Positions 2,998-60,380 of a stretch of 64,000 bases of DNA are shown one piece after another. Made by a program: the position numbers and the translations under genes. How positions within the stretch are numbered: the stretch's first letter is position 1; each line of letters starts with the position of its first letter. The notes beneath the pieces were generated by a model. That model searched no databases, was not told the origin of the DNA, and was given only the letters and a program-made list of their open reading frames with translations. This DNA is from Christensenella sp. UBA7588 (GTDB lineage Bacteria > Bacillota > Clostridia > Christensenellales > CAG-917), in NCBI GenBank assembly GCA_002478945.1, contig DLKM01000028.1, positions 57,136-121,135 of the forward strand. The letters run 5' to 3'.

Positions 2998-4581
2998 ATG
3001 AGCGAACCGTTGGTATTGACAATCGACTTCGGCACGCAGAGCGTGCGAGCGATGCTTTTCGATAAACACGGAAAAGACTACGGCAAAGAGAAAGTGCATT
3101 TCAAAGAACCGTATTATTCAAAAGAAATCGGTTGGGCGGAGCAGAAACCCGAGTTTTATTGGGATAAGCTCAAAGAGGCAACGAACGGGTTGAAAGCCAA
3201 ATGCGCCGATTTGTGGGACGATATTCGAGCGGTCAGCGTTACGACCATACGAGATACCGTCGTTTTCGTCGATAAGGACGGAAAACCGCTTCGAGACATT
3301 ATCCTGTGGCTCGACCAAAGAGAAGTCAAAGACGCCGACAAGACGAGATTCGGCTCGGGATTCAAATCTCTTTTGAGGCTTATCAATATGTACGATATGG
3401 CGGCAACGCAATGCAAGTCGTCCTCCTGCAACTGGGTACACGAGTACGAACCCGAAGTATGGGCGAAAATGCACAAGTGCCTTATGTTTTCGGGATACAT
3501 CACATACCGATTGACGGGCGTGATGAAAGATTCGGTGGCAAATCAGATAGGACATATCCCGTTCGATTATAAAAACAAAACTTGGCAAGGACCTCGCGCC
3601 ATAACCGCTCCGATATTCGATTTGAAAGCAAAAGATATGTGCGAACTTGTCGAACCGGGTACGGTTATCGGATATATCACGAAAGAAGCGTGCGCCGACC
3701 TCGGCATAAAAGAGGGCTTGCCCGTAATCGCTTCGGGTTCTGATAAGGGATGCGAAACTTTAGGTTCGGGTTGCGTGGACAGCACGGGCGCGTCGCTTTC
3801 GCTCGGGACTACGGCAACGGTACAGATGACCACCGACAAATATGTCGAAACAGAGCCTTTCGTGCCGTCTTATCCCGCGGTTTTGCCCGGGAAATACAAT
3901 CCCGAAGTGGAGATTTATCGCGGATATTGGATGCTTTCGTGGTTTAAGAACGAATTTGCGCACAAAGAAGTCAAAGAGGCAAAAGAACTCGGCGTTGCCG
4001 CAGAGGAGTTGCTCAACAGACACCTCAAAGACGTGCCTGCGGGATGCGAAGGCTTGATTTTGCAACCGTACTGGACGCCGGGTATCAAGCATCCGACGGC
4101 AAGAGGCGCAATACTCGGATTTGCCGATTGCCACACGCGCATACATATTTACAGAGCAATCATCGAGGGCATTGCGTACGGATTGTACGACGGTCTGCTG
4201 TCAATCCAACGCAAGACCAAAATAAAAGTGGAGTTTTTGGCGGTGTCGGGCGGCGGAAGCGAAAGCGACGAAATATGCCAGATAACGTCGAATATTATGG
4301 GAATCCCCGTTCGCAGAGCGCAAACGTACGAGACGTCGTCGCTCGGCGCGGCAATCACGGCGTTTAAGGGTTTGGGCGTATACAAGACCTTTGAAGAAGC
4401 GGCGCAGAATATGGTGCATATCTCCAAAGAGTTTACGCCGAATATGAAAGAACACGCCCTGTACGAGAAACTTTACAACCGTATCTATCGCAGAATTTAT
4501 CCCAACAACAAAAAACTCTACGATGATTTGAAGTTCATTTTGCGAAACGAAAAAGCAGAGAACGCAGAAACAGAAAAATAA
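2998..4581 (+). CDS. FGGY-family carbohydrate/polyol kinase
   Basis: LVLTIDFGTQSVRAMLFD phosphate-1 motif and the C-terminal FLAVSGGGSESDEICQITSNIMGIPV FGGY signature. An RGGGA-type RBS (gagaggga) lies upstream. Confidence 0.8.
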   Translation: MSEPLVLTIDFGTQSVRAMLFDKHGKDYGKEKVHFKEPYYSKEIGWAEQKPEFYWDKLKEATNGLKAKCADLWDDIRAVSVTTIRDTVVFVDKDGKPLRDIILWLDQREVKDADKTRFGSGFKSLLRLINMYDMAATQCKSSSCNWVHEYEPEVWAKMHKCLMFSGYITYRLTGVMKDSVANQIGHIPFDYKNKTWQGPRAITAPIFDLKAKDMCELVEPGTVIGYITKEACADLGIKEGLPVIASGSDKGCETLGSGCVDSTGASLSLGTTATVQMTTDKYVETEPFVPSYPAVLPGKYNPEVEIYRGYWMLSWFKNEFAHKEVKEAKELGVAAEELLNRHLKDVPAGCEGLILQPYWTPGIKHPTARGAILGFADCHTRIHIYRAIIEGIAYGLYDGLLSIQRKTKIKVEFLAVSGGGSESDEICQITSNIMGIPVRRAQTYETSSLGAAITAFKGLGVYKTFEEAAQNMVHISKEFTPNMKEHALYEKLYNRIYRRIYPNNKKLYDDLKFILRNEKAENAETEK

Positions 4582-24273: not shown

Positions 24274-24849
24274 ATGAGCGAATTTTCAAAGACAGTCGTG
24301 CTTGCGTCCGCATCGCCGAGGCGCAAGGACATTCTGCACGATATGGGGCTTGATTTTCAAATCTTGCCTTCGAGCGTGGACGAGAGCAAAATCAAGGCGA
24401 TTTTGCCTTGCAATCTCGTTGTGCGACTTGCAAAAGCAAAAGCGGACGACGTTGCCGAGCGCACGCAGGACGTGAGCGTAATCTCTGCGGATACAATCGT
24501 AGCGCGCGGAATGCGTGTGTATGGAAAGCCCAAAGACGAGCAGGACGCCGTGCGTATGATAAAAAGCCTCAACGGCAGATGGCATACGGTGTATACCGGT
24601 GTTTGCGTGAGGTGCAAGGATAAAGAAAAGACGTTTTTCGTGTCGTCCAAGGTCAAATTTAAGAATCTTACCCAAGACGAAATAACCGCTTACGTCAGAG
24701 AGTGCAAGCCTCTTGACAAAGCCGGCGCATACGGAATACAAGACCACAGAATAGTTGAAAAATACAAGGGAAGTTACACAAATATCGTGGGACTGCCCGA
24801 GGAAAAACTTGCCGAGATATTGAGGCAAGTCGGAGTTATCAATGGCTAA
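24274..24849 (+). CDS. maf: Maf-like nucleoside triphosphate pyrophosphatase
   Basis: VVLASASPRRKDIL...AGAYGIQD are canonical Maf motifs. The start at ATG 24274 lies inside the longer listed ORF. Confidence 0.9.
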   Translation: MSEFSKTVVLASASPRRKDILHDMGLDFQILPSSVDESKIKAILPCNLVVRLAKAKADDVAERTQDVSVISADTIVARGMRVYGKPKDEQDAVRMIKSLNGRWHTVYTGVCVRCKDKEKTFFVSSKVKFKNLTQDEITAYVRECKPLDKAGAYGIQDHRIVEKYKGSYTNIVGLPEEKLAEILRQVGVING

Positions 24850-25840
24850 TATAGAACTTTCAATCGATTTGGGAAGCAAATTTATCACGATATACCAAAA
24901 AGGTATAGGTCTCGTTTTGCGCGAGCCTGCAATCGCAATCGCTACAAAGGCTCGCAATCGTCTCGAAATCAGAGACGCAGGCTACAGAGCCGAAAGCGTT
25001 ATGACGGGCGCGCTCGGCGGAGCGAGAGTCATTGCTCCCATAAAGGAAGGCGTTATCGTCGACGAAGAAATGGCAACGATGCTTCTTGCGTATTTTCTCA
25101 AAAAGATTATGCCCGAGGGCTTGTTTGCTCCGAGAATAAAAGCAATCGTGTCCATTTGCGAGTCGTCGTCCAGTTCGGACAGGCGCGTAGTTGAAAAATG
25201 CTGCCTTAAAGCGGGCATAAAAGAAGTTACCCTCGTGGAATCTGGCTTGAGCCTCCTTGCGTATACGGGTAGCATCGGCGGACTGTTTGTGGATATAGGC
25301 GGCGGAAAAACGGAAATCTCCGCGGTTACCAATCACGGAATCGCAACGGGTTGCTCCGTCAATATCGCAGGAGACGCTTTCAACAATGCAATCATCGACA
25401 GCCTGTATATGAATTACGGCGTTAAAGTGGGCGAATTCACAATCGAAAATCTCAAAAAATCCGCACTTTCTTTCTATGTCAACGACGAAGGCAGTTATGC
25501 CGTAAGCGGCGGCAGTTCGGACGGCTCTCCTCGTTCGCTCTACGTTACGGCGGAAGCAATGCGTAATGCGGTTATTCCGCTCGTAGACGACATTATCGAA
25601 GTGATTATGTCCGTTCTCAACCAAACTCCGCCCGAATTGTCCGCGGAAATCTTGCGCAAGGGCATATTCGTCAGCGGCGGAAGTTTGCATATCCCCGGTC
25701 TTATCGAATATCTCGAGCAAGCTCTCGAGCTTCCCGTCACACCCCTCAAAGACATCGAAAACGCTATTGCAATAGGCGGTGCGGGGTTCTTTGACGAGCG
25801 GAATCTTTTGTCGGATATGCTCGGCGTCAAATTGTATTAA
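24842..25840 (+). CDS. mreB: divergent MreB/Mbl-family actin-like protein
   Basis: SIDLGSKFITIYQKGIGLVLREPAIAIA, DIGGGKTEIS and FVSGGSLHIPGL match the MreB phosphate/adenosine motifs with substitutions. It overlaps the maf stop. Confidence 0.75.
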   Translation: MANIELSIDLGSKFITIYQKGIGLVLREPAIAIATKARNRLEIRDAGYRAESVMTGALGGARVIAPIKEGVIVDEEMATMLLAYFLKKIMPEGLFAPRIKAIVSICESSSSSDRRVVEKCCLKAGIKEVTLVESGLSLLAYTGSIGGLFVDIGGGKTEISAVTNHGIATGCSVNIAGDAFNNAIIDSLYMNYGVKVGEFTIENLKKSALSFYVNDEGSYAVSGGSSDGSPRSLYVTAEAMRNAVIPLVDDIIEVIMSVLNQTPPELSAEILRKGIFVSGGSLHIPGLIEYLEQALELPVTPLKDIENAIAIGGAGFFDERNLLSDMLGVKLY

Positions 25841-25973
25841 AGCGCACTATTTAGCGAATAACTGCGTCAACACCCGTTCGCTACAAAATCACGTACGCCT
25901 TGTACGTTGGGTTTTGTATCAAACGGGTGTTTTCTTGTTCTTCATCCGTTTGGGACGCTTTAATGCAATTTGA
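25827..25973 (+). repeat. three-tier nested hairpin element, copy 1 (39-nt core identical to 59839-59877)
   Basis: The outer stem 25827-25844 / 25956-25973 is 18 bp with one G.U. The middle stem 25869-25878 / 25922-25931 is 10 bp and perfect. The core is 25879-25917. The outer left arm contains the TAA stop at 25838-25840. Confidence 0.85.
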
Positions 25974-26046
25974 GCTATTAAATATATTTATGATGTTTCT
26001 TATTCCTGTTTCGACGAAAAATTCGGAAAACGCACATTGAATACGT

Positions 26047-26256
26047 TCAACGAAGAACGTTGTTGTTTCCAATTAAAAAATCGGCAGTGCAGTTGAATAC
26101 CGCACAAATCTGTTTGAGTTGATAAAGACGAGGCTCTTGAACTCCGGACAGCCATTTGCTTATCGTACCTTGTGTTGTGCCTACAGCTTTTGCAAGTGAC
26201 TCCTGTGTAAAACCGTTCTCTATCATTAATTCTTTGAGATTATCTTTGAATTGCAT
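26047..26256 (-). CDS. XRE-family helix-turn-helix transcriptional regulator (69 aa)
   Basis: LKELMIENGFTQESLAKAVGTTQGTISKWLSG is a classic HTH_3 motif. The start at ATG 26256 lies inside the longer ORF. Confidence 0.85.
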   Translation of the reverse strand: MQFKDNLKELMIENGFTQESLAKAVGTTQGTISKWLSGVQEPRLYQLKQICAVFNCTADFLIGNNNVLR

Positions 26257-26289
26257 AATTATATTGTATGTAAAATATTCGATTTGGAA

Positions 26290-26318
26290 TTGACATATTC
26301 GAAAACGAATGTTATGAT
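26290..26318 (+). promoter_or_regulatory. putative promoter of the lipoprotein gene with an embedded palindromic operator
   Basis: TTGACA (26290-26295), a 17-nt spacer, then TATGAT (26313-26318). The spacer contains the palindrome ATTCGAAAACGAAT (26297-26310), and another ATTCGA lies just upstream. Confidence 0.55.
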
Positions 26319-26373
26319 AAAGCAAATGAAATACATTTTGTATTTTTACTATTGTATTTAAGGAGGGGAAACT

Positions 26374-27258
26374 ATGAAGAAATTTTTTCCGATTTTAGTT
26401 GTTTTAATCATTTGTGTGGTTTTTGGGTCTTTTGTTGCGTGCAATAAAAAGGACGAATCAAAAGATATTTTGCGTTCTGATATGACGCTTGACGAAGTCA
26501 AAGAAGCGTTAAAAGACGTAAAAAGTTATAGGAGGCAATCTCGCACATCGGACGCGGACGGAGCGGTTTTAGAGGATTATGTGTTCGGCACAAACGGTTA
26601 TTCTCTCGTTGTGGAAAGAATTAGTTTTTATGACGTTACTTTTTTCGAAGATAACAAGTATTATTATATGTATGGCAATAGCGATGTTGAGGAAATTATG
26701 ATTGTCGACTGTTCGGGGTATGATGTGAATTACGACTTTGACAGAGAGGGCGTGGATGTTCTTGTTTCTCTTATGACGGAGTACGGCTATACAATAAAAG
26801 ACAATACTATATACATCGAGGATGTTAATACACATTCTACGCACGTCTTTTACGAATTTAATGTGGCAAAAACGGAGCCTTACGGTAAATACAAAAGCAC
26901 TTACAAAACGCTTCAACCGACCACGTCTTTGCTGGTTTATGGGGATTTAGATGATAATTCTTGCGAGCTTGCCGAAGTCAATGCGCCGCTCAAGACGTTG
27001 CAAATACCCGAGGCATATAACGGAAAATCGGTAACGAAAGTCGTTTGCGAAAACGTGAAAAATCTGATAATCCCTAAAACCGTTAAAGAATTAAGATTAC
27101 GTTCAATAAGCGATGATATGATTATTACATATTTAGGAACAAAAGAAGAATTTTACGCAAACGTACGGACGAATACTTCAATAGCCGCTTGCGATATTGA
27201 ATGTTCGGACGGTACGATAAAAAAAGGAGACAGTCTCACGGTATCGAATGGGAATTGA
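26374..27258 (+). CDS. lipoprotein of unknown function with a C-terminal BspA-type leucine-rich-repeat-like segment
   Basis: Signal peptide with lipobox FVAC, strong RBS AAGGAGGGG, AT-rich codon usage, and LQIPEAYNGKSVTKVVCENVKNLIIPKTVKEL, which resembles LRR_5 repeats. Confidence 0.7.
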   Translation: MKKFFPILVVLIICVVFGSFVACNKKDESKDILRSDMTLDEVKEALKDVKSYRRQSRTSDADGAVLEDYVFGTNGYSLVVERISFYDVTFFEDNKYYYMYGNSDVEEIMIVDCSGYDVNYDFDREGVDVLVSLMTEYGYTIKDNTIYIEDVNTHSTHVFYEFNVAKTEPYGKYKSTYKTLQPTTSLLVYGDLDDNSCELAEVNAPLKTLQIPEAYNGKSVTKVVCENVKNLIIPKTVKELRLRSISDDMIITYLGTKEEFYANVRTNTSIAACDIECSDGTIKKGDSLTVSNGN

Positions 27259-27332
27259 AAAATTCGATTGTCGGAATGCGCGTGTTAAAAACATAAAAGC
27301 CGATTTCGACAAACACACTCCAAAATCGACAG

Positions 27333-27366
27333 AAACAGACATCTATATACGGTGTCTGTTTTTTAT
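27333..27366 (+). terminator. rho-independent terminator
   Basis: Stem AAACAGACATC pairs with GGTGTCTGTTT around loop TATATAC, followed by a T-run. Confidence 0.75.
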
Positions 27367-41512: not shown

Positions 41513-42010
41513 ATGCCAAAAGACAAGGTTGAAAAGACCAACGCGATGCGCCTTCTCGACGCAAAAAAAGCGGTGTATAAAGAGCATATTTTGCCGATAA
41601 CCGAAGCGGTTAGCGGAGAAGAAGCGGCAATGCTTTTAGGCGTTGACGCGAAGTACGTTTATAAAACGCTCGTAACCGTGGGCAAGAGCCTCGAACACTA
41701 TGTGTTCGTCGTACCAGTTGCGTGTGAACTCGACCTTAAAAAAGCCGCTCAAGCCGTCGGCGAAAAGAATATCGAAATGGTGCGTTCCAAAGACTTGCTT
41801 CCGCTCACGGGATACGTTCACGGCGGTTGCTCGCCGCTCGGTATGAAAAAATTGTTCAAAACGATTATCGACGCAAGTGCAGAAAGCGTGGACAAAATCT
41901 ATTTTTCCGGCGGGAAAATAGGCTATCAGATAGAAACCACGCTTGCGGAACTTAAAAAAGCAATACCTTTCAAACTTGCCGATATTACCGTCGATAAAAT
42001 TGAATGTTGA
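41513..42010 (+). CDS. ybaK: Cys-tRNA(Pro)/Cys-tRNA(Cys) deacylase YbaK
   Basis: KTNAMRLLD N-terminus, KTLV...VFVVPV, and GYVHGGCSPLGMKK. Start at ATG 41513. Confidence 0.85.
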   Translation: MPKDKVEKTNAMRLLDAKKAVYKEHILPITEAVSGEEAAMLLGVDAKYVYKTLVTVGKSLEHYVFVVPVACELDLKKAAQAVGEKNIEMVRSKDLLPLTGYVHGGCSPLGMKKLFKTIIDASAESVDKIYFSGGKIGYQIETTLAELKKAIPFKLADITVDKIEC

Positions 42011-42035
42011 CATATCTTGTTTTATCCCTCATAAT
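42007..42035 (+). promoter_or_regulatory. sigma-A promoter of paralog 1
   Basis: TTGACA (42007-42012), a 17-nt spacer, then CATAAT (42030-42035). Confidence 0.65.
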
Positions 42036-42053
42036 AAAATAAGGAGGGAGCTT

Positions 42054-43598
42054 ATGAAAACGAATATCAAAATGTTAATCTGCACGTTCGTAGCGATTGC
42101 GATGGCAATCCTGTCGGGCGTGTTTATTTTTGTTCCTCAAGGCGTTGCCGCGGCAAATTCCGCTATGCTTTATTTTGAGGGAGTAAACTCTGTAGGCGCA
42201 ATAATCAGAGATGAAGATTGTCCTATCGTCGTAGATAGAGAGGATTTGACTTTCGATATTTACAAAGACGATTTGAGGCGTGATTTTAGGGAAAATTCTC
42301 CCTCGGGCAGAGTCAGCGCAAAATACACGTTCAGAAATCCGACGGATATTACGGCAAAAGTCGGTTTGGTTTTTCCGTTCGGTTACGGTCCCGAGTACGA
42401 GTTCGAGTCTGAAAAAGACCAAAAAAAGTACCATTCCGTCAAAGTGAACGATGAGGAAATCGACAAGAGAATACGCTATACGTATAAGCCGAGAAAAGAG
42501 GAAAACGAAATTCTCCAGTTCGACCTCGGTAAAGACACGCAATTTTTGTCCGACGATTATATCGAAAACGATGTCGCACGGAAAGATACCAAACTTTACA
42601 AATACGTTTGCGATACGAATTACAAAGATACTTCTCAATGGGGCATCAATTTAGTATATACAGGCGAGTATTCGGGAATCATATTGTGCGATTTCACGTC
42701 TACGACGAGCAAAGAAAAGAATCCGGACTATTATGCGGGGTATAAGCGTTGTGCTACCGTCCAGTGTGACAAAGACGGATATGCAACGTTTTATAGTTTT
42801 GAAGAATTGAATACTTCCGACTTTGTTTGTTTGCCGCGTTACGATGCGACCGTAAGCAGATTCGAACTCAAATATGCAGGAGAAACGACGTTTTTTGACC
42901 TTGCCGAGTCGTTATACGACGATGAGAGCGGGATTGAAAAGGTCGACTGGTACAATGCGCTTATGGCAAGATTGTGCTTGTATCAAAGCGACGGATTTGC
43001 CGATTTGTCGTTTGATACAGATTGCAGATTCCGTTGGTACGATTACACGCTCCAATTTGCTCCAAATCAAACCATAGTAAACGAAGTCGTTGCGCCGCTT
43101 TATCCCACAATTAACGCAGAGGTTTCTCCGAACGTTTATAAATACACATATCTTCTTTCTCCAGCAAAGACGTGGGCGAGTTTCGGAGAGTTTCATTTGC
43201 GCATAAACACCGATTTGCAAACTCAAAACGTTTCTGTTGGCGAAATGGAAAGGCAAAACGACTACTACGAGTATACCTGCCAAGGCTTGCCTGACGGAGA
43301 GTTGACGTTTGACATATATGCAATCTCCGCATCCGTACCTAACGATTCGGAATCACAATCGAGAGCGGTTATTGCAGGAATAGCGATTGGCTTGGCGGTC
43401 ATGATAGTGCTGTCGACTTTAATCGTCTTTATCGTCATAGCATCTAAAAAACACAAGGAAAAGAAACTTTTGCAATCGTTCAAAAGTCAAAACCCGCACG
43501 TTGCCACGGAGAGTGAACCGCAAAGCGACGCTTCCGCTCCCATAAAAACAGATGCGGAAGAAGCGGAGAAAGATACTCCTGCCGACAACAATCAATAA
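42054..43598 (+). CDS. type-I membrane-anchored surface protein of unknown function, paralog 1 (514 aa)
   Basis: Signal peptide ..GVAAANS, an ectodomain of about 430 aa, a TM helix AVIAGIAIGLAVMIVLSTLIVFIVIA, and an acidic cytoplasmic tail. RBS AAGGAGGG upstream. Confidence 0.8.
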   Translation: MKTNIKMLICTFVAIAMAILSGVFIFVPQGVAAANSAMLYFEGVNSVGAIIRDEDCPIVVDREDLTFDIYKDDLRRDFRENSPSGRVSAKYTFRNPTDITAKVGLVFPFGYGPEYEFESEKDQKKYHSVKVNDEEIDKRIRYTYKPRKEENEILQFDLGKDTQFLSDDYIENDVARKDTKLYKYVCDTNYKDTSQWGINLVYTGEYSGIILCDFTSTTSKEKNPDYYAGYKRCATVQCDKDGYATFYSFEELNTSDFVCLPRYDATVSRFELKYAGETTFFDLAESLYDDESGIEKVDWYNALMARLCLYQSDGFADLSFDTDCRFRWYDYTLQFAPNQTIVNEVVAPLYPTINAEVSPNVYKYTYLLSPAKTWASFGEFHLRINTDLQTQNVSVGEMERQNDYYEYTCQGLPDGELTFDIYAISASVPNDSESQSRAVIAGIAIGLAVMIVLSTLIVFIVIASKKHKEKKLLQSFKSQNPHVATESEPQSDASAPIKTDAEEAEKDTPADNNQ

Positions 43599-43639
43599 GA
43601 CGACTATTAAACTGTAAAACACGTTTTAATAAAAAGGAA

Positions 43640-43675
43640 GGAGCAAAGCGCATTGCGATTTGCTCCTTTGTTTCA
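43640..43675 (+). terminator. rho-independent terminator of paralog 1
   Basis: GGAGCAAAGCG cattg CGATTTGCTCC (one mismatch) followed by TTTGTTTC. Confidence 0.7.
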
Positions 43676-43711
43676 TAATAAATATAAGTAAACATAGAGT
43701 AAAATTGAAGA

Positions 43712-43740
43712 TTGACATATTTTTTATTATCCCTCATAAT
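43712..43740 (+). promoter_or_regulatory. sigma-A promoter of paralog 2
   Basis: TTGACA (43712-43717), a 17-nt spacer, then CATAAT (43735-43740). Confidence 0.65.
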
Positions 43741-43758
43741 AAAACAAAGAGGGAGCGT

Positions 43759-45393
43759 ATGAAAACGAACATCAAAACGTTAATATGCACGTTCGTAGCG
43801 ATTGCGATGGCAATCCTGTCGGGCGTGTTTATTTTTGTTCCCGAAGGCGTTGCCGAGGCAAATTCCGCGTGGTATAAGTACGACGGCGTAGATGCGGTCG
43901 GCGCAATCGTAAGAGGCGAGAATTGCCCTATCGTCGTGGACAGAGAAGATTTGACTTTTGACATATACAAAGAAGATTTGGGAACTTTTTATGACGAATA
44001 CGAGGTTCCTGCGGGCAAAGTCAGCGCAAAATACACGTTCAGAAATCCGACGGACATTACGGCAAGGGTGGAATTGCTTTTCCCGTTCGGTTATGCGCCC
44101 GAGTACGAGGCGGACGATACGAGAGACAACAAAAAATATTATTCCGTCACGCAAGACGGCGAGGATATTCCCAAACGCATTAGAAATACTTATAGAGACA
44201 GAAGAAACGACAATTACGATATAGCGCAGTTCGACTTTGCAAAAGACACGGAGTATTTATCGGAAGATTATATCGAAAAATACGGTTTTACCAAAGATAC
44301 GAAAGTGTACGAGTACGTTTGCGGTGCGAACGTCTTTGGTAGGACTCAAAAGGCAATAAATATTATCAATAATACGGATTCGCAAATTCTGTGCAAACTG
44401 GAGCATTATCCCGGATTGACCAATAGATACGAAAAGGCCTATTGCGACGAGAACGGAAAGGCGACGTTCTTTTGTTTCGAAAAGCCGAACGAGGGAGATA
44501 TAAGCTGTCGCACATCAGACGACAATAGTATGAAATTGAATTATGAATTCGTAAAAGAAACGACCTTGTTTGAAGCATTGACTTCCGTGCGCCGCGAGGA
44601 CGACGACATCGAGGACGTGGATTTGTTCAATGCGTTTATCGCAAGATACGATGAGGAATATGCGTTTATAAACATCGATTTTGAAAAAGAATACAGATTC
44701 CGCTGGTACGATTATACTCTTGAATTTGCTCCAAATCAGACCATCGTCAACGAGGTAGTTGCGCCGCTTTATCCAAACGTTACGAGAGAATATATTCCGA
44801 AAGTGTATAAGTACACCTACTTGCTTTCTCCTGCAAAGACGTGGGCAAGTTTCGGAGAATTCCATCTGCGCATAAACACCGATATGTACGTCAAAAACGT
44901 GTCCGTCGGCAAAATGAAAAAGCACAAAGGCTATTACGAGTATACCTGCCAAGGCTTACCTGACGGCGAACTCACGTTTGAAATTTGCAAAAGTGCCGCG
45001 CCGATTACGAACAATGCGTGGTGGGGGCTTGTGATAACGGGAATCGCTCTTGCCGTAACGTCGGTAATTTGGATTCCGATACTTGTCCTTATCATTATAA
45101 AAGCGCACAACAAACGCAAAGAAAAGAAATTTTTGCAATCGTACACAGGTCAAAAACCGTTCTATAAAGCCGTGCCGAAAAACGAATTCGATGACGACGA
45201 TAGCTTATTTGACGGCAAATTCGATATTGACGAGCAAATGAGCGAAAATATAGCCGAATCGGCAGAGAATACGCCGAGTGAAGATTCTCAAAACGTAGCC
45301 ACGGAGAGCGAATCGCAAAACGACGCTTCCGCTCCCGTAAAAACAGATGCGAAAGGAGCAGAAACCGATACTCTCGCCGACAACAGTCAATAA
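43759..45393 (+). CDS. type-I membrane-anchored surface protein of unknown function, paralog 2 (544 aa)
   Basis: Same architecture as 42054-43598: a conserved signal peptide, a conserved membrane-proximal block (RFRWYDYTLEFAPNQTIVNEVVAPLYP...YKYTYLLSPAKTWASFGEFHLRINTD), a TM helix and a longer acidic tail. Confidence 0.8.
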   Translation: MKTNIKTLICTFVAIAMAILSGVFIFVPEGVAEANSAWYKYDGVDAVGAIVRGENCPIVVDREDLTFDIYKEDLGTFYDEYEVPAGKVSAKYTFRNPTDITARVELLFPFGYAPEYEADDTRDNKKYYSVTQDGEDIPKRIRNTYRDRRNDNYDIAQFDFAKDTEYLSEDYIEKYGFTKDTKVYEYVCGANVFGRTQKAINIINNTDSQILCKLEHYPGLTNRYEKAYCDENGKATFFCFEKPNEGDISCRTSDDNSMKLNYEFVKETTLFEALTSVRREDDDIEDVDLFNAFIARYDEEYAFINIDFEKEYRFRWYDYTLEFAPNQTIVNEVVAPLYPNVTREYIPKVYKYTYLLSPAKTWASFGEFHLRINTDMYVKNVSVGKMKKHKGYYEYTCQGLPDGELTFEICKSAAPITNNAWWGLVITGIALAVTSVIWIPILVLIIIKAHNKRKEKKFLQSYTGQKPFYKAVPKNEFDDDDSLFDGKFDIDEQMSENIAESAENTPSEDSQNVATESESQNDASAPVKTDAKGAETDTLADNSQ

Positions 45394-45433
45394 AATAGTT
45401 TTGCAACGGTCAAACACATCCTATAAAAACAAA

Positions 45434-45468
45434 GGAGCAAATCGCATTGCGATTTGCTCCGTTCGTTG
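45434..45468 (+). terminator. terminator hairpin of paralog 2
   Basis: GGAGCAAATCGC att GCGATTTGCTCC is a 12-bp perfect stem. The T tract is weak (GTTCGTTG). Confidence 0.6.
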
Positions 45469-45502
45469 ATTATATCGTTAAAAATACCTTATAAAAATAT
45501 TG

Positions 45503-58418: not shown

Positions 58419-58493
58419 CGACAAACTAAAATTATTATAGACAAAGGTCATACGACACCGCCGATGCGGAATATACTTTTACCGGAGAAAGGT

Positions 58494-59801
58494 ATGAAAG
58501 TATGTAAATTCGGCGGAACGTCAATGGCAAACGGCGCCACCGTATCGCAAGTTATCAAGATTATAGACAGTGATGCGGACAGGCGCTTTATCGTTGTCTC
58601 CGCACCCGGGAAACGCAACGTAACCGACGTCAAAATTACCGACGCGCTATATGCGTGTTACGACGAGAAAAAGAGAAACGGCAACTGTTCAAAGTCATTC
58701 GAAGTCGTGAAAAAACGCTTTTCCGATATGGTCAAAAGCCTCGATATAGATTTTGACGTTTTTCCCGCGCTCGACGATATAAAAGACAGAATCGAGCGTA
58801 GCGAAACGAGCGATTACGCCGCTTCGAGAGGGGAGTATCTGTGCGCGCGATTACTTGCCGCAAAACTCGGATTCGAGTTTGTGGACGCCGCCGACGTGAT
58901 AAAATTCGACGACGAGGGAAGATTGCTTACCTCGTATTCGCTCGGACTTATAAAAAAGAGGCTCGACGGCGTAAAGTATGCGGTCATTCCGGGCTTTTAC
59001 GGCTCGGATTGCAAAGATAACATCAAAACTTTTTCGAGAGGCGGCTCGGATATAACGGGCGCGCTCGTCGCAAGAGCGGTGTGCGCCGACGTTTACGAAA
59101 ACTGGACGGACGTGGACGGTTTTTTGCGTGCAGACCCTCGCATAGTGGAAAATCCTGCCTTAATCGATTGCTTGAGTTACAGAGAATTGAGAGAACTTTC
59201 GTATATGGGGGCGGAAGTGTTGCATCCCGAATCTATTTTCCCCGTGCGAAGCGCAGGCATTCCGATAAACGTCAAAAATACGTTCAATCCCTCTTGCGAG
59301 GGAACTATGATAGTTGCAGAAAAAAGCCTGCCCAAAGGAGATTGCGTAGTAACGGGTATTGCGGGCAAAAAGGGCTTTACAATCGTAAATATCGAAAAAG
59401 ATATGATGAATTCCGAGATAGGTTTCGGCAGAAAGGCATTGTCCGTTCTCGAGGCAGAGGGGATACCGTTCGAGCATATTCCGTCGGGAATAGACACTCT
59501 GTCCGTTGTTGTGAGAGACGAGTATATCGCAGGCAAAATGCAAAAAGTGCTTGCAAGCCTGCAGAAACTGCTCAACGCCGACAATATAGAGATACACAGC
59601 GGTCTTGCTCTCATCGCAACCGTCGGACACAATATGGCGTCGCGCCGCGGCACCGCCGCAACTCTTTTCAAAGCCCTCTCCGACAGCAACGTCAACGTCC
59701 GAATGATAGACCAAGGTTCTTCCGAACTGAATATAATCGTTGCGGTGGACGCAACGGATTACGAGAAGGCTATCAACGCCATATACAACTCGTTTGTATA
59801 A
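58494..59801 (+). CDS. aspartate kinase
   Basis: MKVCKFGGTSMANG N-terminus, FSRGGSDITGA, and WTDVDGFLRADPRIV, with two C-terminal ACT-like regions. RBS GGAGAAAGG upstream. Confidence 0.9.
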   Translation: MKVCKFGGTSMANGATVSQVIKIIDSDADRRFIVVSAPGKRNVTDVKITDALYACYDEKKRNGNCSKSFEVVKKRFSDMVKSLDIDFDVFPALDDIKDRIERSETSDYAASRGEYLCARLLAAKLGFEFVDAADVIKFDDEGRLLTSYSLGLIKKRLDGVKYAVIPGFYGSDCKDNIKTFSRGGSDITGALVARAVCADVYENWTDVDGFLRADPRIVENPALIDCLSYRELRELSYMGAEVLHPESIFPVRSAGIPINVKNTFNPSCEGTMIVAEKSLPKGDCVVTGIAGKKGFTIVNIEKDMMNSEIGFGRKALSVLEAEGIPFEHIPSGIDTLSVVVRDEYIAGKMQKVLASLQKLLNADNIEIHSGLALIATVGHNMASRRGTAATLFKALSDSNVNVRMIDQGSSELNIIVAVDATDYEKAINAIYNSFV

Positions 59802-59923
59802 ACGCGTCAAATAGCGCCTGACTTTGGCAGCGCGCATCCGCTACAAAATCACGTACGCCTTGTACGTTGGGTTTTGTCTCGGACGCGCGCTTTCGCGTTA
59901 TCCATCTATTTGACGCGTTTATA
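59797..59923 (+). repeat. three-tier nested hairpin element, copy 2 (39-nt core identical to 25879-25917)
   Basis: The outer stem 59797-59814 / 59906-59923 is 18 bp and perfect. The middle stem 59829-59840 / 59880-59891 pairs 11 of 12. The core is 59839-59877. The outer left arm contains the TAA stop at 59799-59801. Confidence 0.85.
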
Positions 59924-60380
59924 ATATAGGGGTGGGGTGTTGAGCGAATAACTGTGTTAGAGCGCATTAAGTGCGTTTTTAACAGAGTGTATCGTAGCTC
60001 CTCTAAATACAATAACCCCCTCTTTCCGGACACGCCGGTATTTCTCCCGCCACTCGTATAGGGACATTCCTCTACAATGGAAAACATCGCTCGCGGGGGA
60101 GACAACGGCACTCACATAGATAGGGATATTTCTCTCATTATGCCACCGTCCTTTGTGTGACTGCTACGCAACAACACGTCACAGTCGGACGGTACTAATC
60201 GTCGAGTTCGGCGCTCAAAGGCTCGCCGCCTTGCGGCTCGAATCCCGTCTTCGAAATCATACATACCGTGTATAGGTTACGCTTCGAATGGACACATTCC
60301 GCGTATAAGCACGCAATAAGCGATTTGTTGATAAGTGTGCCTTGAACGAGAGCGGAACAAGCGGTAAAACAAAACAACCC
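59924..60380. ncRNA. candidate structured non-coding RNA or decayed element of unknown family
   Basis: About 450 nt with coding-like GC, but no credible ORF or RBS. There are many local hairpins, several with G.U pairs that work only on the + strand. An AT-rich pckA promoter region lies on the 3' side. Confidence 0.3.

Follow-up and report, generated by a model that had tools for sequence, protein, structure and literature searches.

Small intergenic palindromic repeats are known from many bacteria, but where they come from and whether they help or burden the host are long-standing questions, for which the family described here offers an unusually clean case. ERIC sequences, or intergenic repeat units, of Enterobacteriaceae and Vibrio are imperfect palindromes of about 127 bp that may affect the 3′ ends and the stability of mRNA. 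Correia elements in Neisseria, and BOX and RUP in Streptococcus pneumoniae, are intergenic sequences that form mRNA hairpins of about 100–155 nt and can serve in termination or as targets of RNase III. In integrons, attC sites (such as the 123–126-nt repeats of Vibrio cholerae) are recognized by their shape and not by their sequence, with extrahelical bases that mark one strand, and mycobacterial MIRUs are operon-oriented intergenic repeats that overlap the upstream stop codon and occur in tandem arrays of variable copy number. Here we analyse a 64,000-nt stretch of DNA from Christensenella sp. UBA7588 (contig DLKM01000028.1, positions 57,136–121,135; hereafter the window, meaning the whole stretch), in which a nested hairpin of 147 nt (25827–25973, + strand) begins on the stop codon of an mreB-like gene. 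This hairpin is one copy of a previously undescribed family of hairpin repeats of about 125–130 nt that is abundant in uncultured human-gut Clostridia.

A dispersed family of hairpin repeats

The mreB-like open reading frame (ORF) spans 24842–25840 (ORF list; Pfam MreB_Mbl, E = 9e-57) and its TAA stop codon (25838–25840, +) lies within the 5′ arm of the basal stem of the hairpin, which we call copy 1. This arm, TCAAATTGTATTAAAGCG (25827–25844, +; defined by the fold, the consensus and comparison with the related locus L210), pairs with CGCTTTAATGCAATTTGA (25956–25973, +; composed of CGCTTTAA and TGCAATTTGA) over 18 uninterrupted base pairs, one of which is T·G. Further in, the middle stem joins AACACCCGTT (25869–25878, +) perfectly to AACGGGTGTT (25922–25931, +) over 10 bp. 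Between these two stems runs a conserved 5′ arm, AGCGAATAACTGCGTC (25853–25868, +), of which the consensus GAATAAC pairs with GTTCTTC and CTGCGTC forms a conserved internal loop; in copy 1 this pairing takes the form of a short GAA-AAC/GUU-UUC helix. The 3′ side carries a conserved T-rich arm, TTTTCTTGTTCTTCATCC (25930–25947, +; consensus TTcCTtGTTcTtCATC).

At the top of copy 1 is the apex module (25883–25917, +). Its lower stem has 7–8 bp (25883/25884–25890 with 25910–25916/25917) and includes a T25889·G25911 wobble; above this are a 2-nt bulge (25908–25909), a 6-bp upper stem (25891–25896 with 25902–25907) and the loop GCCTT (25897–25901). Predicted folding of the 147 nt reaches −59.1 kcal/mol, compared with −29.9 ± 3.3 kcal/mol for 200 shuffled sequences (z = −8.9; no shuffle was as stable). 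A reading of the sequence made before any database search had proposed a three-tier nested hairpin here, and each part that it described was reproduced by the fold, including the 18-bp outer stem with a single G·U pair and the perfect middle stem.

The same sequence-only reading had recognized a 39-nt core that recurs elsewhere in the window, and this recurrence is exact: 25879–25917 is identical at 39 of 39 positions to 59839–59877 (+), with zero such matches expected by chance. The second occurrence belongs to a complete hairpin, copy 2 (59797–59923, +; 112 bits against the family profile, nhmmer), behind an aspartate-kinase gene (58464–59801; Pfam AA_kinase and ACT). Copy 2 also starts on a stop codon, with the TAA at 59799–59801 lying within the basal stem TATAAACGCGTCAAATAG/CTATTTGACGCGTTTATA. 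The two copies are 77% identical across 101 nt, and the basal and middle stems of copy 2 are changed on both sides relative to copy 1, with pairing preserved.

The suspicion that copy 1 is one member of a larger repeat family was borne out by the search for further copies, which returned hundreds in related genomes. A degenerate version of the core, with 19 fixed bases for the genome scan and 21 for the metagenome scan, matched at least 112 stretches in species-representative genomes and at least 117 in metagenome contigs, mostly from the human gut. From these we recovered 189 distinct copies with the core pattern (type A). A family profile built on 133 non-redundant copies (alignment A2) then found 429 elements in 1.9 Mb of retrieved loci (numbered L210, L049 and so on), 324 of them distinct and full-length. 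The copies are partly orthologous and hence not independent, all loci were ascertained through one apex type (the exact type-A core pattern), and genes in the retrieved loci are crude ORF calls. In the window, the profile matches copy 1 (123 bits, E = 1e-37), copy 2 and one orphan fragment (59941–59967), and nothing else.

Carrier genomes are labelled Christensenella sp. (including the 1.65-Mb chromosome CP091723.1), Firmicutes bacterium CAG:475 and uncultured Clostridiales or Clostridia; the few further bin names among the carriers are probably mislabelled. The hosts are a clade of uncultured human-gut Clostridia with small genomes. The window itself is part of a 454-kb contig in the JGI metagenome 3300012344. 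Two short-read assemblies (Logan contigs) break 68 nt past the mreB stop, inside the core, as expected of a repeat; the repeats of this family disrupt short-read assemblies.

No match to the window was found in Rfam 15 at gathering thresholds, and a permissive Rfam search of 25780–26020 returned, up to E = 10, a single match to the lsy-6 microRNA (19 bits; the model's gathering score is 60). No copy turned up in viral contigs or among the records of phages and plasmids. In the literature on such repeats in Clostridia or Christensenellales, we found no paper that describes the family.

Covarying arms around a conserved apex

The family unit is about 125–130 nt long and comprises four helices. 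From the 5′ end it consists of an A-tract, a variable basal stem, the GAATAAC/GTTCTTC helix, a variable G+C-rich middle stem, a near-invariant apex and a T-tract. The consensus of the 5′ half is aaaA-nn-GCGCTAAATAG-CGAATAACTGCGTCA-(11-nt stem)-CTC-CAAAATC-ACGTAC-N5; after the N5 loop, the 3′ half reads GTACGT-TG-GGTTTTG-TTT-(stem′)-TTCCTTGTTCTTCATC-TATTTAnCGC-nn-TTTT. The palindrome ends 60–75 nt from its centre throughout the family. We rejected the idea that it generally reaches far into the flanks, because past about 75 nt the distribution equals that of the control.

The stems that flank the apex covary, in a test that the sequence-only reading had proposed. Across the 48 pairs of the four-tier structure, 87.6% of cells are paired, compared with 72.1% when partners are shuffled and about 41% when they are slid. 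Cells in which both partners have changed number 1,049, against 367 ± 19 with shuffled partners, and compensatory changes occur in 34 of the 48 pairs. Each of the 10 pairs of the middle stem has double changes in 15–67 sequences; helix 3 is paired in 84% of cells and the basal stem (helix 1) in 77%, with all nine of its pairs varying.

The apex behaves differently. Its architecture (a 6-bp upper stem, a T·G wobble and a 2-nt bulge on the 3′ side) is kept in 296 of the 324 distinct full-length elements; in the family unit, the apex runs as 6 bp, the T·G wobble, the bulge, 6 bp and a variable loop of 5 nt. The T·G pair, the second of the lower stem and the U·G pair to which the sequence-only reading had drawn attention, is retained in 290 of these 296 apexes. 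The bulge has 2 nt in 293 elements (TG in 197, TA in 80 and TT in 14), and the loop has 5 nt of free sequence in 271. Stem sequences vary between apex types: upper stems include ACGTAC/GTACGT, ATGTAC/GTACAT, ATTTAC/GTAAAT and ATGTGC/GCACAT, and lower stems include AAAATC/GGTTTT, CAACTC/GGGTTG, CAAGTC/GGCTTG and GCAATC/GGTTGC. The sister types were detected through their arms rather than through the core pattern, and they keep the architecture with different stem sequences; by this comparison of sequences, the apex is a conserved shape. Apexes of differing type can occupy one orthologous site or stand side by side.

Constraint in situ was gauged from 70 orthologous pairs whose upstream coding DNA is 0.85 identical. 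Identity is 0.97 in the apex stems, 0.90 in the T-rich arm, 0.88 in the CTGCGTCA internal loop and 0.75 in the apex loop, and falls to 0.73–0.77 in the middle stem, 0.70 in the basal 3′ arm (0.70–0.87 for the basal stem as a whole) and 0.32 (ungapped) in the downstream flank. Judged by these alignments, the asymmetric apex is held more tightly than coding DNA and the termini are the freest part; a transposon with terminal inverted repeats would show the opposite pattern. Conservation of the apex beyond that of coding sequence points to a specific partner protein.

Docking on stop codons

Elements occupy a fixed position relative to the gene upstream. Of the 189 type-A copies, 130 have a 5′ arm in which an ORF on the same strand, 100 codons or longer, terminates, compared with 19 for the mirror position. 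The stops cluster at −59 to −64 relative to the centre (87 copies, versus 3 in the mirror peak). Because about 16% of the genes in the window lie on the minority (lagging) strand, an orientation linked to replication is unlikely to be the whole cause (P = 1.5e-4). Neighbouring elements share their orientation in 197 cases and oppose each other in 2. Many form head-to-tail arrays of two to at least four units with a period of about 124–127 nt (for example, at L010, L012, L058 and the site shared by L013, L086 and L077); the shared site carries one, two or three units in different samples.

The start of the hairpin on a stop codon, noted for the mreB-like gene from the sequence alone, holds there and throughout the family. 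The stop codon is inside the stem in 75% of the 130 copies, copies 1 and 2 among them, and abuts the stem in another 10%. Of 186 canonical terminators in the same genomes, 3% enclose a stop codon (Fisher P = 3e-45), and their stems start a median of 31 nt after it. Docking is thus a property of the element and not of gene ends; we rejected, on this comparison, the idea that it merely reflects the usual location of terminators in these genomes. The ORFs upstream of 29 copies run a few codons into the arm and end at a stop within it, and CTAAATAGCGAATAAC closes all three frames (TAA, TAG and TAA). Copies on TGA stop codons are bounded by TGA…TCA, which is an inverted and not a direct repeat.

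The genes upstream are intact, unrelated housekeeping genes with complete C-terminal domains, and include those for GroEL, DnaN, GuaA, ArgS, Fba, Obg, TsaD, Upp, iPGM and rubrerythrin.

Gain of the element at the mreB-like locus

Relatives of the mreB-like gene record when the element arrived. At L210 (84.5% DNA identity) the element is present and its palindrome is extended in the same way; homology between this locus and the window stops exactly at 25973, the last base of the hairpin. The element is absent behind MreB-like orthologues of 88, 86, 84, 83, 75, 73 and 66% protein identity (L233–L239), where ordinary terminators precede a minD/ParA-like gene. Because the element is present in the window and L210 and absent behind the other orthologues, the alignments show that it was gained at this site within the clade, upstream of the ancestral terminator. 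That canonical terminator, ACAGACA..TGTCTGTTTTTT, survives at 27335–27364, ahead of the minD/ParA-like gene, and is conserved in relatives that lack the hairpin. An insertion of the element into the ancestral terminator was rejected, as the terminator is intact. Matching of flanks among the retrieved loci returned only sites that are filled, occupied by a sister apex or different in the number of tandem copies; true empty sites come only from the MreB-like orthologues, which are too diverged to give the insertion point to the nucleotide.

The basal 5′ arm of copy 1 is composite. Its first part (25827–25836) is native coding sequence, and the rest (25837–25844, TTAAAGCG) is the A-tract and GC clamp typical of the family. 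MreB-like homologues down to 46% identity are about 332 amino acids long and have the C terminus ..LG[VI][KR]L-x; because they end alike, the codons V-K-L-Y-stop (25827–25840) are native. The possibility that the element encodes these last codons was rejected, as element-free homologues end likewise. The outermost 10 bp (25827–25836 with 25964–25973) are therefore the native codons V-K-L-Y paired with downstream DNA, in which TGCAATTTGA (25964–25973) complements host coding sequence; they are peculiar to the mreB locus and lie outside the family-level unit. Elsewhere in copy 1, the 3′-arm segment CCGTTTGGGA mismatches its 5′ partner CACTATTTAG. The same version of the segment occurs in other copies, whereas L210 has a matching CTAAATATTG, which points to exchange between copies.

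A 1.36-kb AT-rich segment (25974–27334) follows directly after the hairpin (GC content, 0.37 at 26001–27000 compared with about 0.48 elsewhere). It holds a gene for an XRE-type helix–turn–helix protein on the − strand (26047–26256/26325) and an ORF of 294 amino acids (26374–27258, +) with no match in Pfam, PHROG or PADLOC. The segment is absent in L210, L233 and L236–L239, in which the mreB-like gene directly precedes the minD/ParA-like gene. The sequence-only reading was right that a two-gene insert begins here, as the segment is an indel relative to orthologous loci; it is a separate event from the gain of the hairpin.

At the element-free locus of the 66%-identical orthologue (L236, 2190–2260), the last codons and stop, ACTTGACTGATAAA, are complementary to TTTATCAAGTC, which lies about 45 nt further on; the pairing may be due to chance.

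Transcript ends and rival explanations

We give about an even chance to the explanation that the inserted module works as a terminator and/or a protector of mRNA 3′ ends, with its apex bound by a putative factor. We rank it as the most likely because of the sense position of the elements at the ends of transcription units, their A- and T-tracts, the depletion of other terminators and the Firmicutes precedent. At least four T residues occur in the 5 nt at the 3′ end of 64% of 246 elements (five in 26%), and at least four of five bases are A at the 5′ end of 65%. A separate canonical terminator, as detected by a simple in-house rule, lies within 150 nt of 6% of element-bearing gene ends, compared with 32% of element-free ends with a comparable spacer, a fivefold depletion (P = 1e-10). 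The median distance from an element to the next gene is about 275 nt, which indicates that elements mark the ends of transcription units. As precedent, a review (PMC7858274, citing Johnson et al. 2020) holds that terminators a few nucleotides from the stop codon are workable in Firmicutes because transcription outruns translation. From these patterns, the elements probably serve as transcription end signals of host genes. The element would be transcribed as the immediate 3′ end of the upstream mRNA and would replace the ordinary terminator of the transcription unit; it would terminate transcription intrinsically, probably in both directions, and/or block 3′ exonucleases. The apex and the conserved internal loops may form the docking site of a putative protein, which could either bind or process RNA or be the enzyme responsible for propagating the element.

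Several observations weigh against this explanation. The two copies in the window have weak T-tracts after the basal stem (TTTAAT and TTTATA), and the ancestral terminator of the mreB-like locus has survived downstream of copy 1. The opposite strand of copy 1 folds almost as stably (−55.8 kcal/mol), so that folding energy cannot choose the strand, and a symmetric A-tract, hairpin and T-tract would terminate in either direction, so that a role in termination, taken alone, accounts neither for the docking on stop codons nor for the strictness of the sense orientation. The invariance of 19–21 core bases in alignment A2 follows from the fact that the loci were found by those bases. Outside the apex, A·C mismatches (379) are as common as G·T pairs (303). 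The earlier suggestion that the U·G pair reflects RNA-specific wobble is thus unsupported in the remaining stems; the counts depart from the prediction for selection on an RNA helix alone. The arms look like DNA palindromes rather than helices selected only as + strand RNA, and these sequence patterns suggest that they are kept palindromic at the level of DNA, for example, through template switches inside the hairpin or through transfer of sequence from one copy to another. A simple terminator scan flags only the apex mini-hairpin with TGGGTTTTGT, which we do not regard as meaningful.

The behaviour of the arms is one reason to consider the element selfish and non-autonomous, moving as a hairpin of single-stranded DNA in the manner of REP/RAYT systems, derivatives of IS200/IS605 or folded attC sites. 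The apex would then be the strand-specific recognition site of a transposase or recombinase, the insertion mechanism would set position and orientation, and any terminator activity would be incidental. We think this unlikely, although it is the main rival. It would account for a strand-marking T·G pair and 2-nt bulge conserved amid covarying stems and a free loop, for discrete subfamilies with many copies each, for presence or absence that varies among relatives and for head-to-tail arrays of one, two or three units at one site between strains. Foreign modules sit at fixed points of the arms, and in one element (L049, 5118–5254) the apex is inverted relative to the arms, as though the segment between the arms of the middle stem had been flipped. 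Direct repeats of at least 5 bp at the copies are no commoner than in the control, tandem arrays aside, as with IS200/IS605. However, a tblastn search with an approximate IS200 TnpA query found no Y1 transposase in the 1.9 Mb of loci and the window, no repeat of insertion-sequence length recurs among the loci of four genomes, and phage, plasmid and viral collections contain no copy. REPtron-like inverted pairs are also missing, given the strong co-orientation of neighbours, and orientation tracks the gene more strictly than a replication-strand bias would. Copies fixed as parasites would moreover be free to decay, which is at odds with the identity of the apex at orthologous sites. A classical miniature inverted-repeat transposable element (MITE), moved by a DDE transposase that binds terminal inverted repeats, would also be palindromic, about 125 nt long and present or absent among relatives, as the element is at the mreB-like locus (window and L210 against L233–L239). 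Many copies are in addition bounded by TA or TTAA, which could be the short duplication of a palindromic target. Such a duplication of 2–4 bp is indistinguishable from the palindrome itself, the copies on TGA stop codons have inverted boundaries and no long target duplication was found. Again, no partner insertion sequence occurs among the loci of four genomes, and a strict sense orientation would be unexpected. In the element, variation is greatest at the termini and conservation is greatest at the centre, where inverted repeats bound by a transposase would show the converse; this explanation is largely refuted and very improbable.

The element could also be a cis-regulator of translation termination or mRNA fate: a terminating ribosome would have to open the basal stem at the enclosed stop codon, and expression of the upstream gene would be tuned by stalling, trans-translation or RNase III cleavage. 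Liang, Rudd and Deutscher reportedly described in 2015 that E. coli REPs within about 15 nt of stop codons act on translation in this way. The enclosure of stop codons far above its rate in ordinary terminators of the same genomes agrees with such a role, as does the strictly sense orientation, and a long, near-continuous duplex is a plausible substrate for RNase III. Yet the host genes are unrelated housekeeping genes with no obvious shared need for down-regulation, the arms lack the wobble excess of RNA helices and the conserved apex, which lies far from the stop codon, is left unexplained; we consider this role improbable. That copy 1 is an ordinary locus-specific terminator, or a palindrome that arose by chance, would fit its place at a gene end and the short T-run after it. 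This is refuted by the hundreds of related copies, the stability of the fold relative to shuffled sequences, the exact recurrence of the core and the covariation of the stems.

A further proposal, which we make tentatively and hold to be doubtful, combines mobility with termination. A new kind of mobile gene-end module would home in on native stop codons, arriving in the sense orientation no more than a few nucleotides away, and then take over as the terminator. Homing may proceed by a mechanism coupled to the termination of transcription or translation, or through a factor that reads the bulged T·G apex on one strand. The outer stem that copies the last host codons (25827–25836 with 25964–25973) may be the footprint of hairpin-primed fold-back or template-switch synthesis.

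The family is present in hundreds of copies in the small genomes of abundant uncultured human-gut Clostridia. If the terminator role is true, a sizeable share of transcription units in these bacteria end in one shared, propagated module; if the homing proposal is true, it would represent a new principle by which mobile DNA is targeted. As arrays differ in length from strain to strain, the repeats are possible lineage markers or strain-typing loci.

Associated modules and other features of the window

The orphan fragment in the window, TTGAGCGAATAACTGTGTTAGAGCGCA (59941–59967, +), corresponds to profile positions 21–47 (nhmmer) of the 5′ arm. It lies 18 nt past copy 2, and after it comes a small hairpin that carries a T-run, GCGCATTAAGTGCGTTTTT. 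The fragment could be what is left of a second unit, or a relative that lacks the apex.

A second dispersed repeat of about 110 nt, CCGAACAAAAGCCGTCATTGCGGCAACGG…GGCTTTTGTTCTGCTAACCGCGCCG, has a hairpin of its own and occurs in L148 (3249–3370) and in 21 other places (for example, L112 at 1331 and L170 at 2179). At the majority of these 22 sites it is fused to an element, directly after TTCTTCAT of the 3′ arm. It matches no Rfam family and is not present in the window. In L148, a gene for the bacterial large signal recognition particle RNA (3509–3700; Rfam RF01854, 116 bits) lies just downstream of the element that is joined to this repeat. Another extra module, of about 52 nt (GACGCGATTGACGCAAAGCGTAACAATCGCTATTCCGTCACTTCGTTCCTTA) and itself a small hairpin, is found at one fixed point of the 5′ arm in around ten copies (L019 around 753–889, L054 8978–9114, L145, L147, L154, L156, L157 and others).

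Unrelated to the hairpin, the window contains two adjoining paralogous genes of about 1.7 kb each (41943–45474), the DNA of which is 72–85% identical. They end in similar terminator hairpins at 43633–43673 and 45427–45467 (repeat families D1–D3, D5, D12 and I1).

Comparison with known repeats

The family most resembles ERIC, REP/BIME, Correia and BOX elements in its form; its position is most like that of the stop-proximal terminators of Firmicutes. ERIC is nearly equal in size and likewise forms a long imperfect hairpin within intergenic DNA that is transcribed; both have a conserved centre, lack a known transposase and have copies that differ by inserted modules. The two are set apart, as far as descriptions go, by unrelated sequences and hosts (here, Clostridia) and by the strict sense orientation, enclosure of stop codons, asymmetric conserved apex and head-to-tail arrays of the family described here. 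Similar to REP/BIME, it is an extragenic, high-copy imperfect palindrome with a strand-marking irregularity, lies at the 3′ ends of transcription units and forms mosaics with other small repeats. However, REPs are 20–40 nt long, carry GTAG on their 5′ side and are found in either orientation, frequently paired as inverted copies, whereas the present elements are about 125–130 nt long, have no GTAG at the foot of the apex hairpin and keep to a single orientation. The modular build recalls BOX. Correia and RUP elements, in contrast, have conserved terminal inverted repeats, a TA duplication and either orientation, and it is the termini that vary here.

As in the stop-proximal terminators of Firmicutes, which according to PMC7858274 can overlap the footprint of the ribosome at the stop codon, an A-tract, a hairpin and a T-tract stand at the end of the transcription unit. 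A typical terminator has a stem of 5–14 bp, compared with about 50 bp in four tiers here, and has no repeated sequence in common with others. Integron attC sites are similar in length, have imperfect dyad symmetry and lie directly 3′ of an ORF in a fixed orientation. They differ in their RYYYAAC/GTTRRRY core sites, which are missing from the family (the nearest sequences, GAATAAC/GTTCTTC, lie internally), and in being part of a cassette array of promoterless ORFs next to an integrase (intI/attI), whereas the genes upstream of these elements are dispersed housekeeping genes (MreB-like, aspartate kinase and others). MIRUs are direct repeats of 46–100 bp with small ORFs for translational coupling and are not hairpins. 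What distinguishes the family is the docking on stop codons in a strict sense orientation, the bulged T·G apex with a free loop, and termini that are adapted to the locus and sometimes copy host codons.

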